Under the pieces are notes generated by a model, which was given only the letters and a program-made list of their open reading frames with translations, searched no databases and was not told the DNA's origin. A stretch of 64,000 nucleotides of DNA, taken from NCBI GenBank assembly GCA_018302765.1, contig JAGVZG010000002.1, forward strand, positions 1 through 64,000, in the 5' to 3' direction. Below, piece by piece: positions 51,126-58,400 of this stretch. Positions within the stretch are counted from its first letter, which is position 1. Each line of letters opens with the position of its first letter. The translations under genes and the position numbers were made by a program. The DNA is from Candidatus Woesearchaeota archaeon. GTDB taxonomy: Archaea; Nanobdellota; Nanobdellia; SCGC-AAA011-G17; GW2011-AR18.

Positions 51126-52844
51126 ATGAAAAACCAAGAGGTGGCTGAAATACTTTTCAAAGTAGCTGATTTGCTAGAGTTGCAAGATGAGATAAGATTC
51201 AAATACTTGGCTTATAGAAAAGCAGCCCAAACAATAGAAAGATTATCCCAAGACATACTAGAGATTTATAAAAAAGGAGGAATAAAAGCATTAGAAGAAA
51301 TACCTTCTATTGGCTCAGGAATAGCTGAAAAAATAGAAGAGATATTAAAAACTGGAAAATTAAATTATCTAGAAGAATTAAAAAGTAAAATTCCTATTGA
51401 TGTTGATTCTTTAATGGGTGTAGAAGGTCTTGGATCAAAAAGAATAGGAACACTATATAAAAAACTAAAAATAAAAAACATTAAAGATTTAGAAGGAGCA
51501 GCAAAACAAGGAAAAATAAAAAACATTCCAGGATTTGGAACTAAAGTAGAAGAAAACATTCTAAAAGCAATTGAATTTTCTAGAACAGCTAAACAGAGGT
51601 TTGTATTAGGTTTTGTCTGGCCTACAATTCTAGAATTAGAAAAGAAAATTAAGTCTATTAAATATGTTCATAGAATTGAGATATGCGGCAGTGTTAGAAG
51701 AAGAAAGGAAACTATTGCAGACCTAGATATTTTAACAATAAGCAATAATCCTGTAAAAGTAATTGATACTTTTACTAAACTAGAGGAGGTAAAAAGAATA
51801 TTAGCAAAAGGCGGTACAAAAAGCACAGTTATTTTAAGAAACAATATGCAGGTTGATCTAAGAGTTCTCCCAAAAGAAAGCTTTGGCGCTGCAATGCAAT
51901 ATTTTATAGGAGATAAAAATCATAATGTAAAATTAAGAAGAATAGCAATTTCCAAAGGCTATAAACTCAGCGAATATGGCTTGTTCAAAGAAAAAAAAGC
52001 AATAGCTGCAGAAGATGAAGAAGAGATTTATAAATCTTTAGGATTAGATTATATTGAACCAGAAATGAGAGAGGATTCTGGAGAAATAGAATTGGCAATG
52101 AAGCATAAAATTCCAAAATTAATTCAATTAAGTGATATAAAAGGAGATCTTCATATGCATACAAACCAAAGTGATGGCTTAAATACTATGGAAGAAATGA
52201 TAGAAAAAGCAATTTCTTTAGGCAGAAAATATATTGCAATAAGCGATCATACTGGATTTTTACAAGTTGCTCATGGCTTAAATGAAAGGCAGTTATTAAA
52301 ACAAAAAGAGAACACAGAAAAAATGAAGAAAAAATATGGCAATAAAATTACAGTTTTAAGCGGGTGCGAAGTAAACATTAAGGACAATGGAAAACCAGAT
52401 ATTAGAGACTCTATTTTAAAGCAGCTTGATGTTGTAACTGCAAGCATCCATACAGGATTTAAAGGCTCTGAAGAAAAAACCACTAAAAGGACAATTGCAG
52501 CAATGGAAAATCCAAATGTTGACATTATAGGACATCCAACAGGGAGAGTACTGCAAAAAAGAAACCCTTTTGCTATTAACTTAAATAATGTCTTTGAAAA
52601 GGCAAGAGAAACAGGAACTTGTCTAGAGATAAATTCATTTCCTACTAGGCTAGATCTAAAAGACATTCATATTAAAGAAGCTATTAAAAATAAAATCAAA
52701 TTAGTTATATCAACAGACTCCCATGAAGTCTTGCATCAAGAATTTATGCAGTTTGGAGTTTGGCAGGCAAGAAGAGGCTGGGCAGAAGCTAAGAATATTC
52801 TAAATACTTTGCATCTAGATAAATTTTTAAAAAATCTAAAATGA
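51126..52844 (+). CDS. polX: DNA polymerase X with C-terminal PHP domain
   Basis: AYRKAA, GSVRRRKETIADLDIL, QVDLRV, DLHMHT..SDG, ISDH, HPTGR, STDSH. Confidence 0.95.
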   Translation: MKNQEVAEILFKVADLLELQDEIRFKYLAYRKAAQTIERLSQDILEIYKKGGIKALEEIPSIGSGIAEKIEEILKTGKLNYLEELKSKIPIDVDSLMGVEGLGSKRIGTLYKKLKIKNIKDLEGAAKQGKIKNIPGFGTKVEENILKAIEFSRTAKQRFVLGFVWPTILELEKKIKSIKYVHRIEICGSVRRRKETIADLDILTISNNPVKVIDTFTKLEEVKRILAKGGTKSTVILRNNMQVDLRVLPKESFGAAMQYFIGDKNHNVKLRRIAISKGYKLSEYGLFKEKKAIAAEDEEEIYKSLGLDYIEPEMREDSGEIELAMKHKIPKLIQLSDIKGDLHMHTNQSDGLNTMEEMIEKAISLGRKYIAISDHTGFLQVAHGLNERQLLKQKENTEKMKKKYGNKITVLSGCEVNIKDNGKPDIRDSILKQLDVVTASIHTGFKGSEEKTTKRTIAAMENPNVDIIGHPTGRVLQKRNPFAINLNNVFEKARETGTCLEINSFPTRLDLKDIHIKEAIKNKIKLVISTDSHEVLHQEFMQFGVWQARRGWAEAKNILNTLHLDKFLKNLK

Positions 52845-53435
52845 CTAAGGTTTATGTCTACTTCTAAGTTTAGCAAACCATTTCTTAACGTCTCTTTGAA
52901 TCTGGTCTTTATGGTCTGGATTTCTTATTTTTAATTCAACACCTTGGATTCTATGCTTAGACAAAGTAACTTCTACATTATTATAAGTGTATTTTCCATC
53001 TGCGCTTGAATATTTAGACAAAACAATATTTGCCCTGTCTAATTCATAACCGGCTTGCTGCAATAGTGCTGTATGTATTCCTTTAAAATAATCAAAGCCA
53101 TTGCTTAAATCTATATAAACTTCAGCATCTCTTCCTCCAATAACCATAAGCTCTAATACTTTCTGTTCGTCTTTTCTGAAAGCCACTCTTCTATTAGCAG
53201 TAATTAGTCCACTTTTATCATATTGAACTCTTTGTATAGCAAAAGGAATAATTCCCTGACTACAACATTCTTCTATGTATTGATCTACATAGTGTTTAGA
53301 AGCCCCAAGCAGAGGCATTTCTATACCTTCAGCTACAAAAATGGCTTCTCCAGACAAAGGAGTTAGCCTTAAAGTTTTTAAAGTATCATAAAATAAGTCC
53401 TGCGAAACAATAGGTATTTTGTCTGAGTAAATCAT
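52845..53435 (-). CDS. Hypothetical protein
   Basis: 196-aa ORF. Confidence 0.5.
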   Translation of the reverse strand: MIYSDKIPIVSQDLFYDTLKTLRLTPLSGEAIFVAEGIEMPLLGASKHYVDQYIEECCSQGIIPFAIQRVQYDKSGLITANRRVAFRKDEQKVLELMVIGGRDAEVYIDLSNGFDYFKGIHTALLQQAGYELDRANIVLSKYSSADGKYTYNNVEVTLSKHRIQGVELKIRNPDHKDQIQRDVKKWFAKLRSRHKP

Positions 53436-53603
53436 TTTTATTTATCCAAGGAAAAACTGGAAAATTAAATCACCCCTTATATATTATAATTAATGATAAA
53501 ATTTTATAAATGTTTTTGTTTCTCTAGAATATTAAGTAAAATACTAAAATATCTATTATAAAATCATAATAAATTATATAAACCTAGTAAAAATTAAAAT
53601 TGT

Positions 53604-54251
53604 ATGTATTATAAAGATTTAGATTATTTAAAACAAGCTTATTCTCAGAGAAAAGAAATAATACAAAATAGATTAAAATATTTCAAAAGTGTCTGGAATG
53701 AAGACGAAAAAAGAATATTTGCTGAATTATGCTTTTGCTTGTTGACACCGCAAAGCAAAGCAAAACTATGTGATGCTGCAATACAAAATCTAGTAAAAAC
53801 AAACCTATTATTTACTGGAAAGGAACAGGACATTAAAGATTATCTAATAGGTGTAAGGTTTAATAATAATAAATCTAGGTATATTACTGAAGCGAGAAAT
53901 ATGTTTACTAAAGACGGTAAAATTTTTATAAAAGACAAGATTAAACAATTTGACAATGAGTTAGAACTTAGGAATTGGCTAGTGGAAAATGTTAATGGTA
54001 TTGGATTGAAAGAGGCTGGGCATTTTATGCGCAATATAGGAATGTATGAAAATGTATCAATTTTAGACAGGCATATTTTAAAAAATTTACATAAACATGG
54101 TGTAATAGATGAAATTCCAAACCCTTTAACAAAAAAACAATACTTGGAAATAGAAGAAAAAATGAAATTATTTTGCAAAGAGGTTGGAATTGGTATTGAA
54201 GAAATAGACTTATTGTTCTGGTCAGAAGAGACAGGAGAAGTATTTAAGTAA
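53604..54251 (+). CDS. ogg: 8-oxoguanine DNA glycosylase/AP lyase (Ogg2-type)
   Basis: ELCFCLLTPQS, GVRF, GIGLKEAGHFMRNIG, ILDRHI, DLLFW. Confidence 0.88.
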   Translation: MYYKDLDYLKQAYSQRKEIIQNRLKYFKSVWNEDEKRIFAELCFCLLTPQSKAKLCDAAIQNLVKTNLLFTGKEQDIKDYLIGVRFNNNKSRYITEARNMFTKDGKIFIKDKIKQFDNELELRNWLVENVNGIGLKEAGHFMRNIGMYENVSILDRHILKNLHKHGVIDEIPNPLTKKQYLEIEEKMKLFCKEVGIGIEEIDLLFWSEETGEVFK

Positions 54252-55374
54252 AACTATTTATTGTTTTTATTAATTCATTTTCAAACCATTCTTCTTTATC
54301 AAATGGAACAAAACAACCAGCAGCAGTTTCGTGCCCACCACCTACACCAAGTTTAATTAAAATATTTCCAAGATTATAATCAGCTTTTTTTGTTCTTAAT
54401 GAATATTTTATAACATTTTTATTAATATCTTTTCCTCTCATAGCAATAACAATACCATATTCAGATTCATCTAGCATAATACTAGAGAACTTGCTCATAA
54501 ATCCACTTTTATGCATTCTTACATTATAAAATACCACATTACCTACTACTTTTTTATACTTGTCAAAATTTTTTCTTTCTTCATCAATTAAATTAGATAA
54601 TGTTAGATAATTTTTATTTAAATATTTAACACTTGGGTTTTCTGAACCATTGATAAGTTCTTCAAATCTAAATTCCTTATTTTCTAAAATTAGTTTTATT
54701 AAACTCTCATTTCCTGTTTCTTCTTCAATAATAAAAGGAGCCCAAAACATCAAGCTTAAATCAAAAAATTTGGTTTTTTTATTTCCAGCATAATAAATAT
54801 TATACCTGTCTAATTTATTTTCCTTTACTAAATTAATAAGCTCTGGAAATAAATTTCTGTAATCTAAAACTACAGAATTAATTTTATTCCTGCAATTATC
54901 AACCAGGTAATCGCAAACAGTACCTATAGCACTTATGTCTCTCCCAAATTTTACAGTTTCAGGCAATGCCATATAAACAATATCTGAAGTATTTACATTT
55001 GTTAAATTAGAACTTCTTGGGCTAAGATAAATAATTTCATCAAATTGTGTTAAATCTGTATATTGGATTGCATACCAATCAAAGGCAAGAATTTTTTGTA
55101 TATTGTTTTTTCTTAATTCATCTATTTGTTCTTTTTTAAGCCCATTTCTATTACCTTTAAAATTTGGAATTTTCTTGTGATATAATCCGTAAATAATAAC
55201 AGAAGTTATTCCATCTGGATCTTCATCACTAATTATTAGATCATAGTCCTCAACCAAATATATCCTAACTATTTTATAAAATTCCTCTAAATTATGAGCA
55301 GTAATAACCCTAACATTATTAAATTTATCAAATTCTACACTTAATTGATGGTGATCTACTATAACTAACTTCAT
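54244..55374 (-). CDS. DHH-family phosphoesterase (DHHA1 C-terminus)
   Basis: SDEDPDGITS, YSLR, GGGHETAAG; the DHH triad itself is not conserved in the expected place. Confidence 0.65.
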   Translation of the reverse strand: MKLVIVDHHQLSVEFDKFNNVRVITAHNLEEFYKIVRIYLVEDYDLIISDEDPDGITSVIIYGLYHKKIPNFKGNRNGLKKEQIDELRKNNIQKILAFDWYAIQYTDLTQFDEIIYLSPRSSNLTNVNTSDIVYMALPETVKFGRDISAIGTVCDYLVDNCRNKINSVVLDYRNLFPELINLVKENKLDRYNIYYAGNKKTKFFDLSLMFWAPFIIEEETGNESLIKLILENKEFRFEELINGSENPSVKYLNKNYLTLSNLIDEERKNFDKYKKVVGNVVFYNVRMHKSGFMSKFSSIMLDESEYGIVIAMRGKDINKNVIKYSLRTKKADYNLGNILIKLGVGGGHETAAGCFVPFDKEEWFENELIKTINSFT

Positions 55375-56999: not shown

Positions 57000-57076
57000 A
57001 TTATTCTAAAACTTAAACACTATATAAGTTTTTTGATGGTTAATTACTATATTTACTAAAACACTTACATACTTAT

Positions 57077-58030
57077 ATGGATTTAGCAGTATGTGACCAA
57101 TATAAAAAAGTTAAATTACAAGTACAAATACACACAAAAGAATTAACAGATTATTTGCACAGCATAGAACATTCTTTGCAATTATTAGAAGATACTAATA
57201 AAAGAAAAGATGTAACTTCTATTTTACTGGAGTTTACAAAAACGTCACAGTTATCTCTACTTGGAGATGAAGCTAAAACTTTAGATGTAGTACTAGAAAA
57301 TTTACTGGATTTAAGAAGGGCTAAAAGACCGTTATATAAAAGGTTTAAAATAAAAGTAGGTGAAAAAATAAGAGATATATCTGTACCACAAAAATCATTA
57401 GAATTATTTCTTAAATATTATGTTTCGCCACTTATAGATCATGCAAAGTGCCATGCTCAATCACATGGTGGTGAAGTGGGATGTACTCCAAAGTACAGCA
57501 TTAAATCTATCTTACCTGTTGAATTTGTTTTGTCATTTGATCTTAAAGATGCTTATAAAAATATAGACTTGCAGTATATATTTGATTTTTATTATGATTT
57601 AATATTTGAAAAAACAAAAGACGTTGAGAAAAGCAAGCAAACTGCTGGATTTTTAGCTGGAGTATCAACTGTTTATTATGCAGATCGTGGATATGCACTT
57701 CCACAAGGATCACCAATATGTTCAAAATTATTTAACAGAGTATTGCTTCCTATTGATAATTTACTATACAAATATTCTTTAGAAATCGGTCTGGATTATG
57801 TAAGATGGGTAGATGACTTTATTTTTAGCTCTAGTGATTGTGGTTTAACATTAGACAAATTTGTTAAAACTTTAGATATTGTCAGAAATTATTTTCCTAT
57901 ATCTGAGAATAAAACATACTTTCAAAGAAAACATCCGGTATATCTTTTAGGACATAAAATTGTTGGCACAGATATAAGTGAGGCGACAACAGAGGAGTTG
58001 GAAACAAGACGCCAAATTAATTTATCATGA
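57077..58030 (+). CDS. Reverse transcriptase, retron-like but divergent
   Basis: YKRFKIK...RDISVP, SHGG, FDLKDAY, LPQGSPICSKLFN, catalytic YVRWVDD (57797-57817), YLLG. Confidence 0.88.
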   Translation: MDLAVCDQYKKVKLQVQIHTKELTDYLHSIEHSLQLLEDTNKRKDVTSILLEFTKTSQLSLLGDEAKTLDVVLENLLDLRRAKRPLYKRFKIKVGEKIRDISVPQKSLELFLKYYVSPLIDHAKCHAQSHGGEVGCTPKYSIKSILPVEFVLSFDLKDAYKNIDLQYIFDFYYDLIFEKTKDVEKSKQTAGFLAGVSTVYYADRGYALPQGSPICSKLFNRVLLPIDNLLYKYSLEIGLDYVRWVDDFIFSSSDCGLTLDKFVKTLDIVRNYFPISENKTYFQRKHPVYLLGHKIVGTDISEATTEELETRRQINLS

Positions 58031-58076
58031 TATAATTAGATTAATCAGCCTATATGCAAATAGAACATGGATAAAT

Positions 58077-58400
58077 ATGAAAAGTAGAACTAATGATATA
58101 GAAAGCAAATATAGAGTTAAAAAATCATATTCACAAGTTAAACAAAACATAGAACTTTCTTATCTTAGAAGCTTGGATATTGATACAAAAATATTATTGT
58201 CTTTTTATCTATTTGGAGAAATCCCTCAAGTTTTAGTTGCTTTTATAGTAGGCGTTAAACAAGAAACTGTTTCTAGAAGTGTTAAAAGACTAAAGAAAGA
58301 AGGTAAAATAGAAACTATTGGCAGAAAAAAACAACTATATGGAAGTGTTGCTAAAGATTACAAGATTGAACTAAGTGAACTATCTGCTTTATTAATATAA
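58077..58400 (+). CDS. Small winged-HTH protein downstream of the RT
   Basis: IPQVLVAFIVGVKQETVSRSVKRLKKEGKI; ATG at 58077 in frame with the 57978 ORF. Confidence 0.7.
   Translation: MKSRTNDIESKYRVKKSYSQVKQNIELSYLRSLDIDTKILLSFYLFGEIPQVLVAFIVGVKQETVSRSVKRLKKEGKIETIGRKKQLYGSVAKDYKIELSELSALLI

Follow-up and report, generated by a model that had tools for sequence, protein, structure and literature searches.

A predicted thumbless, retron-related reverse transcriptase of DPANN archaea encoded divergently from a TrmBL2-like protein

Introduction

What does a single reverse transcriptase (RT) do among the housekeeping genes of an archaeal chromosome? The question is raised by a 64,000-nt stretch of DNA from a Candidatus Woesearchaeota archaeon (contig JAGVZG010000002.1), called the window throughout, which carries a gene for an RT of 317 aa. 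To our knowledge, bacteria are the source of nearly everything established about prokaryotic RTs other than those of mobile introns. About 80% of the RTs of DPANN archaea belong to diversity-generating retroelements (DGRs) (PMC8632793). The preliminary description of the locus had proposed an unclassified archaeal RT system, possibly for defence, made up of the RT and a helix-turn-helix (HTH) gene behind it. The first part of this proposal stood, since the RT belongs to a DPANN lineage that fits no described class, but the pairing with the HTH gene did not. Instead, we read the gene as a minimal, thumbless, retron-related RT, confined to DPANN archaea and standing alone in a slot divergent from a TrmBL2-like protein, and not as a canonical retron. 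This reading is given about an even chance of being correct.

Identity and affinity of the reverse transcriptase

The RT gene lies at 57077..58030 on the forward strand (frame +2), with its ATG at 57077 and its stop codon at 58028–58030. The motifs FDLKD, LPQGSP, RWVDD and YLLGH begin at residues 154, 208, 243 and 289, respectively, which confirmed the intact open reading frame (ORF) and the motifs reported before. Pfam RVT_1 matched residues 148–295 with 41 bits (cut-off 29.6), and the catalytic residues R99, D155, Q210/G211, D246, D247 and K279 were all intact. The assignment as a retron-related RT with fingers and palm only was based on the ORF, RVT_1, the retron models, the AlphaFold (AF2) model and the fold alignment.

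An exhaustive phmmer search with the RT gave about 80 representative clusters at E < 1e-10, mostly of 290–390 aa. These were followed by a score gap and then by generic bacterial retron-like proteins. All family members with a named source were metagenome-assembled genomes (MAGs) of Woesearchaeota, Nanoarchaeota or Pacearchaeota, and therefore the DPANN setting holds. No described DPANN or Woesearchaeota retron-like RT family was found in literature searches.

The family alignment comprised 57 members, and the profile for locus searches was built from 16 sequences. In PADLOC, the window RT matched many retron RT models with 57–69 bits (III-A, II-A, X, IX and VI), none of them dominant. The same was true of all 57 aligned members (1e-20 to 1e-28), for which the best E-values, near 1e-28, were obtained on the models 'RT_other', 'RT_outgroup' and 'RT_VI'. 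On RT_VI, the window RT scored 59.9 bits, no better than on other retron types. It stayed far below every type-specific cut-off, for example 67 bits against 235 on the NCBIfam St85 retron model. The NCBIfam group II RT/maturase model TIGR04416 and the Drt2 model gave 17.9 bits (cut-off 300) and 24 bits (cut-off 390), respectively. No DRT or Abi model was among the 25 best PADLOC matches of the window RT, and no fused domain was detected.

The family profile scored 50–84 bits on the solved retron RTs (Ec86, Eco2/Ec67, Ec78/Eco7, Ec83 and Eco8), with an E-value of 1e-22 for the Ec86 RT, and at most 36 bits on group II RTs, DRT2, AbiK, Cas-RT, DRT9 and Drt3a. The AF2 model, computed on the family alignment, had a pLDDT of 92 and a pTM of 0.90. 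With this model, Foldseek ranked retron RTs first (Ec86, E 7e-14). In VIA-align, retron RTs reached Z values of 19–21, with an rmsd of 2.7–3.5 over about 235 residues, compared with 15–16.5 for group II RTs, 15.4 for DRT2, 14.9 for DGR and 14.6 for AbiA enzymes. In a quick maximum-likelihood tree, all family members grouped together (SH-aLRT 100), separate from the six bacterial retron-like sequences included. Look-alikes in the ESM Atlas were generic RVT_1 clusters from CPR bacteria and phages, which was uninformative.

Taken together, the models, the profile, the fold and the tree indicate that the RT is retron-related, falls outside the group II and DGR lineages and is fitted by no described type. 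By profile and by fold, the nearest relatives of the family are found among retron RTs and not among group II, DGR, Abi or DRT enzymes, and the resemblance to retron RTs seen at first reading was thereby borne out.

Structural features of the enzyme

Eight columns were invariant in the family: R99, D155, G211, R221, R243, D246, D247 and K279. This is the set that would be expected of an active polymerase, and the 317-aa RT of the window, judged from its sequence, is intact and probably active. The Trp of the WVDD loop had been pointed out as unusual. It is indeed present, but it occurs in 96% of the 57 members, so it is a trait of the family, and it was also found in some bacterial type-VI-like retron RTs. 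Similarly, the replacement of the retron motif NAxxH by SIKSI is real but peculiar to the window copy: at position 145 of region X, 56 of the 57 members have His (consensus SLxxH), and Ile occurs in the window copy only. In RT7, the triplet LLG stands in place of VTG, with the Gly conserved in 98% of the family. Between RT2 and RT3, the layout is G..G.S....xx..H, as in retron RTs.

The chain stops 25 residues past YLLGH, the primer-grip motif. Because it ends there, it has no maturase tail, in agreement with the preliminary description. Residues 39–307 of the AF2 model aligned to residues 19–260 of the 314 of Ec86, and nothing matched Ec86 261–314, which form the thumb. By this model, the RT family has no thumb. 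At the other end, the N-terminal 20–80 residues are conserved as protein throughout the family, which marks them as protein-coding and not as a concealed RNA gene. As a separate observation, most members carry an acidic C-terminal tail (alignment columns 401–462) ending in hydrophobic-x-Phe (...EL-VF, ...SI-PF, ...DD-WF), which recalls short C-terminal docking motifs. The tail is missing from the window RT and its closest relatives (loci L001 and L019 in our numbering).

The divergent gene C2 and the shared intergenic region

The gene directly upstream of the RT, here called C2 (56145..56999, reverse strand), encodes a protein of 284 aa with a predicted N-terminal winged helix and a predicted C-terminal phospholipase D (PLD)-fold domain. 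It had not been included in the system first proposed, and it is the conserved neighbour of the RT. Among 47 distinct RT loci from genomes and metagenomes, C2 lay at most four genes upstream of the RT in 23, mostly directly divergent. The position was kept in at least five different outer contexts. In the window's family it is found with the glycogen debranching enzyme, while the commonest arrangement is topoisomerase, C2, RT and metallophosphoesterase; further contexts are beside a YchF-type GTPase and in two more settings. C2-adjacent loci occur on basal branches of the RT tree, which include the window's family, as well as in the large derived clade, and the linkage therefore looks ancestral. 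Between the window and L001, the locus of the closest full-length relative, the C2 proteins are 83% identical and the RTs about 50%.

No convincing Pfam match was obtained for C2, and no match to the Pfam TrmB models or to PDB sequences. Its AF2 model had a pLDDT of 82, and the top Foldseek matches were chains of TrmBL2, a chromatin protein and regulator of archaea (E 8e-10), followed by Nuc/PLD-fold proteins. The TM-score against TrmBL2 was about 0.4 over the whole chain, a low value due to a different orientation of the domains. A complex prediction for RT and C2 scored 0.01, below the mark, and weighs neither for nor against binding.

The two genes share a predicted divergent promoter and operator region of 77 nt (57000..57076, between 56999 and 57077). 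A first AACAC box (57013–57023) abuts a palindromic TATATA (57021–57026), a TATA-like TATATT lies at 57048–57053 between the boxes, and a second AACAC box (57057–57066) is 11 nt before the RT start codon. The same bipartite motif was conserved in other C2–RT intergenic regions: an ACAACAC-type box, often with a TGACA-N7-TGTCA palindrome, followed by a TATA element and another ACAAC box. The motif was retained in loci whose RTs are only 35–50% identical. It was also present upstream of C2 in RT-less genomes, and it spans several GTDB families. Besides window positions 57013–57066, the motif was seen in L023, L036, L038, L039, L058–L061 and L063. The motif may serve as the operator of a so far uncharacterised regulator in DPANN archaea, and the conservation of the AACAC boxes suggests that C2 binds DNA.

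C2 was found in 47 of the 201 sampled genomes of the order, mostly without the RT, which was found in eight. Where the RT is missing, other genes fill the slot divergent from C2, among them an AAA_28 kinase, a CYTH gene and two radical-SAM genes. Some RT loci have a gene of this sort (AAA_28 kinase, CYTH or cytidylyltransferase-like) between C2 and the RT, translationally coupled to the latter. These slot genes are of nucleotide or NAD type, the AAA_28 kinase being NadR-like (L058:5275-7925, L066:1272-3901, L084:3948-4896, L091:4593-5045, L019:5350-5898 and L097:4340-4924). Since C2 and its operator also occur without the RT, C2 appears to be a local regulator whose target slot can take different genes. 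We read the RT as one of several cargoes of a divergent slot that C2 would regulate. In G109, a genome of the window's family that lacks the RT, small ORFs next to C2 were considered as possible RT remnants and rejected, as the RT query found no match there at E 1e-5.

The downstream winged-helix gene

The gene that had been paired with the RT encodes a winged-helix (wHTH)-like protein of 107 aa (58077..58400, forward strand, starting with ATG). Its orientation and its distance of 46 nt from the RT stop codon were as described. A longer form of 140 aa, from a GTG at 57978, overlaps the end of the RT gene and is the form preferred and recorded by gene callers. The protein barely passed the HTH_24 cut-off (22.6 bits against 21.9) and scored 23.3 bits on HTH_Crp_2, with a weak resemblance to the C-terminal HTH of CasR/Csa3-type proteins.

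Conservation of the RT–HTH pair in DPANN archaea was not upheld. No homologue of the wHTH gene was present in the 46 other RT loci or in five RT-bearing genomes, and a search of a collection of 5.8 billion proteins returned the protein itself as the sole match. Since homologues of the RT never co-occur with this gene, the pairing fails. The gene 3′ of the RT differs almost everywhere among the 47 loci. The commonest neighbour is a convergent metallophosphoesterase whose stop codon overlaps that of the RT. Other loci have unrelated proteins of 145, 223, 260 and 387 aa, and in L001 an M78/ImmA-like peptidase is followed by a coiled-coil protein. The downstream wHTH gene is thus a one-genome orphan that landed in a variable position, and not a partner of the RT. 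As side observations, the small M78/ImmA-IrrE-like metallopeptidase directly after the RT of L001 (L001:5969-6397) scored 22 bits, at the cut-off, and the 105-aa coiled-coil protein behind it was also present in genome G149.

Distribution and selection

The RT was found in four of the 21 genomes of its own family. One genome (G171) carried two paralogues. Broken copies were also seen. In G149 (L020:2583-3402) the frame falls into two pieces and contains an in-frame TGA, and L106:4929-5914 is split into pieces of 160 and 123 aa, which indicates that the RT gene decays in some lineages. In unsaturated pairs, the pairwise dN/dS of the RT was 0.21–0.40, compared with 0.07–0.13 for C2 in the same pairs. 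The preliminary description had allowed for relaxed selection and a decayed relic; for the family, a dN/dS of 0.2–0.4 speaks against this. The RT family is under purifying selection and, in view also of its patchy occurrence and the broken copies, functional yet dispensable, and it evolves faster than its C2 neighbour.

An IMG/VR scan returned no family member, only distant RTs, and no mobile-element features were seen around the RT. The GC content across the RT region is flat (27–31%) and no flanking tRNA was found, so there is no island signature. The family is chromosomal, not viral or mobile. The suggested defence role may still hold, but no defence island, effector gene, or viral or mobile context was found at the locus.

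Proposed role and the DNA-maintenance alternative

In the reading that we prefer, the conserved unit would be the RT gene alone, in the promoter-proximal slot divergent from C2. C2 would most likely set the transcription of the RT, as the two AACAC boxes bracket the TATA element of the RT gene. The expressed enzyme would then synthesise DNA from a template that its own locus does not supply. This could be an RNA of the cell or of an invader, or one transcribed from another part of the genome. A role in conflict or stress would be more likely than an essential one, given that the family has retron ancestry, is patchily distributed, evolves faster than its neighbour, includes paralogues and decays in some lineages. 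A stronger statement, put forward tentatively and with more doubt than trust, is that DPANN archaea kept, by deep vertical descent, a thumbless retron-derived polymerase without a dedicated non-coding RNA (ncRNA) or effector, switched by a TrmBL2-like protein. If this is true, a vertically kept RT would be a new functional class of domesticated RT, and the first with a defined archaeal regulatory circuit. It could serve, for example, in cDNA synthesis on non-cognate RNA induced by infection or stress, or as a repair polymerase.

Several points weigh against this reading. The linkage of C2 and RT could be inherited synteny and not function, since C2 and its operator occur in about 40 RT-less genomes. 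A second RT subclade adjoins TsaD/Kae1 and is without C2. A thumbless polymerase may need a partner, and none was found. The window enzyme itself may be impaired, as it is changed at four of 46 highly conserved columns, including His145. Finally, the template, the product and the role of the RT are all matters that we infer.

One alternative concerns the surroundings of the gene. As had been described, the source genome (1.02 Mb in 28 contigs, rated 100% complete) has the RT among housekeeping genes. These are a glycogen debranching enzyme, a PolX-type polymerase, an Ogg-type glycosylase and a RecJ-like protein. A run of DNA-repair-type genes (51126–55374) lies directly upstream of the C2 gene. 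It contains the PolX-type polymerase (572 aa, with a PHP domain, assigned by homology to L001), the Ogg-type glycosylase (53604–54251) and the RecJ-like DHH protein (54244–55374).

A domesticated RT in DNA maintenance or repair, like the group-II-like G2L4, could act on DNA ends or gaps and would need no dedicated RNA. This is a serious alternative, owing to the stable position of the RT among topoisomerase, PolX, Ogg, exonuclease and MCM genes, though we regard it as unlikely. It would agree with an RT that stands alone, with neither ncRNA nor effector, at a stable chromosomal place by DNA-metabolism genes. Most loci have a topoisomerase and a metallophosphoesterase; the window's family has PolX, Ogg and an exonuclease of the RecJ-like or RNase T-like kind, and the TsaD group has MCM together with a PolX fragment. 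The solved G2L4 RT was also among the structural matches of the RT model (Z 15). However, DPANN genomes are dense in information-processing genes, and such neighbours are therefore weak evidence. Moreover, the presence of the RT in only eight of 201 genomes, its dN/dS above that of its neighbour and the broken copies L020 and L106 are at odds with a maintenance role. The retron relatives are, as far as we know, all defence systems.

Search for an RNA partner and the possibility of a cryptic retron

As first noted, only 77 nt lie upstream of the RT, with no adjoining msr-msd. The RNA folds of the intergenic gaps (the 77-nt gap, the 46-nt gap and the gap between the wHTH gene and the glycogen debranching enzyme gene) were not significant against shuffles (z −1.05 to +0.95). 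The values for the two strands of 57000–57076 were −1.05 and +0.29. An Rfam scan of 54–61 kb, with E up to 1, returned nothing, including no intron domains. The scanned part contains the flanks and the 5′ coding region, for which an RNA-model search had been proposed. Within 50–64 kb, the search for a template repeat and variable repeat (TR/VR) pair or for flanking inverted repeats gave only chance-level AT-rich matches, which confirmed the absence of a DGR repeat pair. A bacterial-type promoter and terminator scan gave counts equal to those of shuffles and is uninformative for an archaeon.

The preliminary description had left room for an RNA partner in trans, inside the coding sequence, or none. 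A 301-nt stretch of the window, running from the upstream gap through the 5′-most 224 nt of the RT gene, folded with z −2.2 to −2.7. In the nearest relatives, the same stretch gave +0.29 (L001), +0.83 (L019) and −0.33 (L022), and across 15 loci the mean was −0.8, compared with +0.4 and 0.0 for internal segments. The 5′ fold was thus rejected as a conserved RNA, as the nearest relatives do not match the window value of −2.7. Homologous loci can be very compact, with about 100 nt of non-coding DNA in total. In L036, the 108-nt C2–RT divergent promoter is the only non-coding DNA, and the RT stop codon overlaps the next gene by 4 nt. A small ORF 5′ of the RT in TsaD-type loci was examined as a disguised ncRNA and rejected, as it encodes a conserved basic protein with synonymous variation. 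This small, very basic protein (MGKIxVKK...GHLYYVD..GNVCEA.MARGGKKK...) is found at L003:4714-4899, L006:4738-4896 and L004:4519-4641. An ordinary-size msr-msd adjoining the RT is excluded family-wide. An RNA from another part of the genome, or one that overlaps coding sequence as in type VI retrons (bioRxiv 10.1101/2025.10.22.683967), may still serve the family.

Accordingly, a cryptic type-VI-like retron has to be considered. Its RNA would lie in the 5′ coding region or in a neighbouring ORF, like the 'hybrid RNA' of type VI, or in trans, and an HTH protein (wHTH or C2) would be the antitoxin or partner in abortive-infection defence. The nearest relatives of the RT are indeed retron RTs, and the ncRNAs of type VI retrons were overlooked at first, overlap coding sequence and belong to systems whose HTH protein co-purifies with the RT (bioRxiv 10.1101/2025.10.22.683967; 10.64898/2026.04.27.721009). 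In addition, the Y[ST]RW[VI]DD loop is common to bacterial RTs that score 170–227 bits on RT_VI and have a Cro/C1 HTH gene upstream, and the 301-nt stretch of the window does fold. Nevertheless, we consider this explanation distinctly unlikely. The fold is not found in the closest relatives, and the family mean is weak. The score of the window RT on RT_VI does not stand out among retron types. Neither a Cro/C1 HTH gene nor a small toxin-like ORF is conserved, the RT stands by itself in compact loci, and the wHTH gene is an orphan. Furthermore, the thumb that recognises the msr in retrons (PMC7736814) is absent.

State of the window copy

The window copy could also be a decaying relic, with an open frame but an impaired enzyme, in a family that is functional elsewhere. 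It departs from the consensus at four of the 46 highly conserved columns: Ile145, unique to this copy, for a His conserved in 98% of members, Cys for Trp136 (88%), Leu for Phe62 and Cys for Ser215. It is also without the acidic tail of most members, and a genome of the same family (G149) has a pseudogenised copy. On the other hand, the frame of 317 codons is intact, all eight invariant columns and 42 of the 46 highly conserved ones are kept, and the closest relatives, L001 and L019, have the same short C-terminus. The dN/dS between the window and L001 was about 0.33, a rough value because synonymous sites are saturated. A relic is therefore regarded as quite improbable.

Other reverse transcriptases of the genome

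A DGR or group II RT with its RNA or TR elsewhere in the genome is hardly credible: DGRs do prevail among DPANN RTs (PMC8632793) and the same genome does hold one on another contig, but an RT of its own, of the group-II/DGR-like lineage, lies next to that DGR, the window RT scores 17.9 bits on the group II model against 67 on the retron model, its fold Z is lower for group II and DGR enzymes (15–16.5 and 14.9) than for retrons (19–21), and neither a TR/VR pair nor an intron RNA lies nearby.

The genome carries two further RVT_1 genes of the group-II/DGR-like lineage. One belongs to a separate textbook DGR, unrelated to the window RT, on contig C26 (2.9 kb; L142:1-1594). Its repeats (L142:3-55 and 382-434) share 79% identity, and at all mismatched positions the 382-434 copy, which is TR-like, has an adenine. 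The RT of this DGR lies just downstream of the repeats, at about 680–1594, and the target gene is cut off by the short contig. The third RVT_1 match is at about 88629–89468 of contig C10 (L143:979-1818, minus strand). It scored 44 bits over the C-terminal half of the domain only, in a 279-aa frame. It matched group II and UG-type models best and may be a truncated RT.

Comparison with known systems

The family differs from the DGR-dominated inventory of DPANN RTs in being retron-related, in consisting of fingers and palm, in its stable housekeeping place and in its conserved, putatively DNA-binding neighbour. The RT–HTH 'system' was an accident of one genome, and what recurs with the RT is C2 with its candidate operator. 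If the RT is active, either enzymes of the retron type can use a template from another locus, or they were co-opted to a non-retron use in archaea. The family also offers a very small RT scaffold for enzymology.

Group II RTs have a maturase domain and an intron RNA; the window RT has neither, nor any C-terminal extension. DGRs have a TR/VR pair near a DGR-clade RT, and none accompanies the window RT. The family models and the C-terminal alpha-repeat or fused domain of the Abi, UG and DRT enzymes were likewise not found in it. As for the neighbour, the predicted fold of C2 has the winged helix and PLD-like C-terminal domain of TrmB and TrmBL2, but C2 shows no match to their sequence families.

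Type VI retrons (Retron-Vpa2 and Retron-Sen3) combine a small toxic protein, an HTH antitoxin and an RT (PMC7736814; bioRxiv 10.64898/2026.04.27.721009). The HTH protein is of the Cro/C1 type (91–110 aa), and its gene precedes the RT gene or overlaps it; a small protein of 75–79 aa is often present. The window has instead a downstream winged-helix orphan, and no genes of the type VI kind are conserved in the 47 loci. The likeness to type VI lies in the HTH theme and in the Y[ST]RW[VI]DD catalytic loop, which occurs in a subset of bacterial type-VI-like RTs. The differences are the absence of a conserved toxin ORF and the 59.9 bits on RT_VI, against 170–227 bits for the bacterial examples. The latter (L043–L050) come from MAGs of Acidobacteriota, Armatimonadota, Ignavibacteria and Chromatiales. 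A Cro/C1 HTH gene lies just upstream of these RTs, with an ORF of 78–79 aa before it in L047 and L049, which is the type VI layout. Types VIII and XI have retron-clade RTs for which no ncRNA module was found, together with a protease or esterase effector (PMC7736814). The DPANN family resembles them as a retron-related RT with no recognisable ncRNA, and differs in having no fused or conserved effector.

Retron RTs are defined by two motifs and a contiguous ncRNA (PMC7736814). In region X, the motif is NAxxH, with the His most conserved; in region Y, it is VTG in RT7, with the Gly most conserved, and the thumb that follows RT7 directs the RT to its msr (PMC7736814). The family has SLxxH for NAxxH, although the window copy has lost the His that the family keeps. 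It has LLG for VTG, and the chain ends before the helices of region Y that make up the thumb. Its locus differs from a retron in having no contiguous msr-msd with inverted repeats and no conserved effector, as well as in its DPANN host and its stable, syntenic housekeeping position. Against a small bacterial sample, the family formed its own clade, with similar scores on all retron types. Nevertheless, retron RTs are the best match of the family both by profile and by fold, and the family shares with them the layout between RT2 and RT3 and the Gly of RT7.

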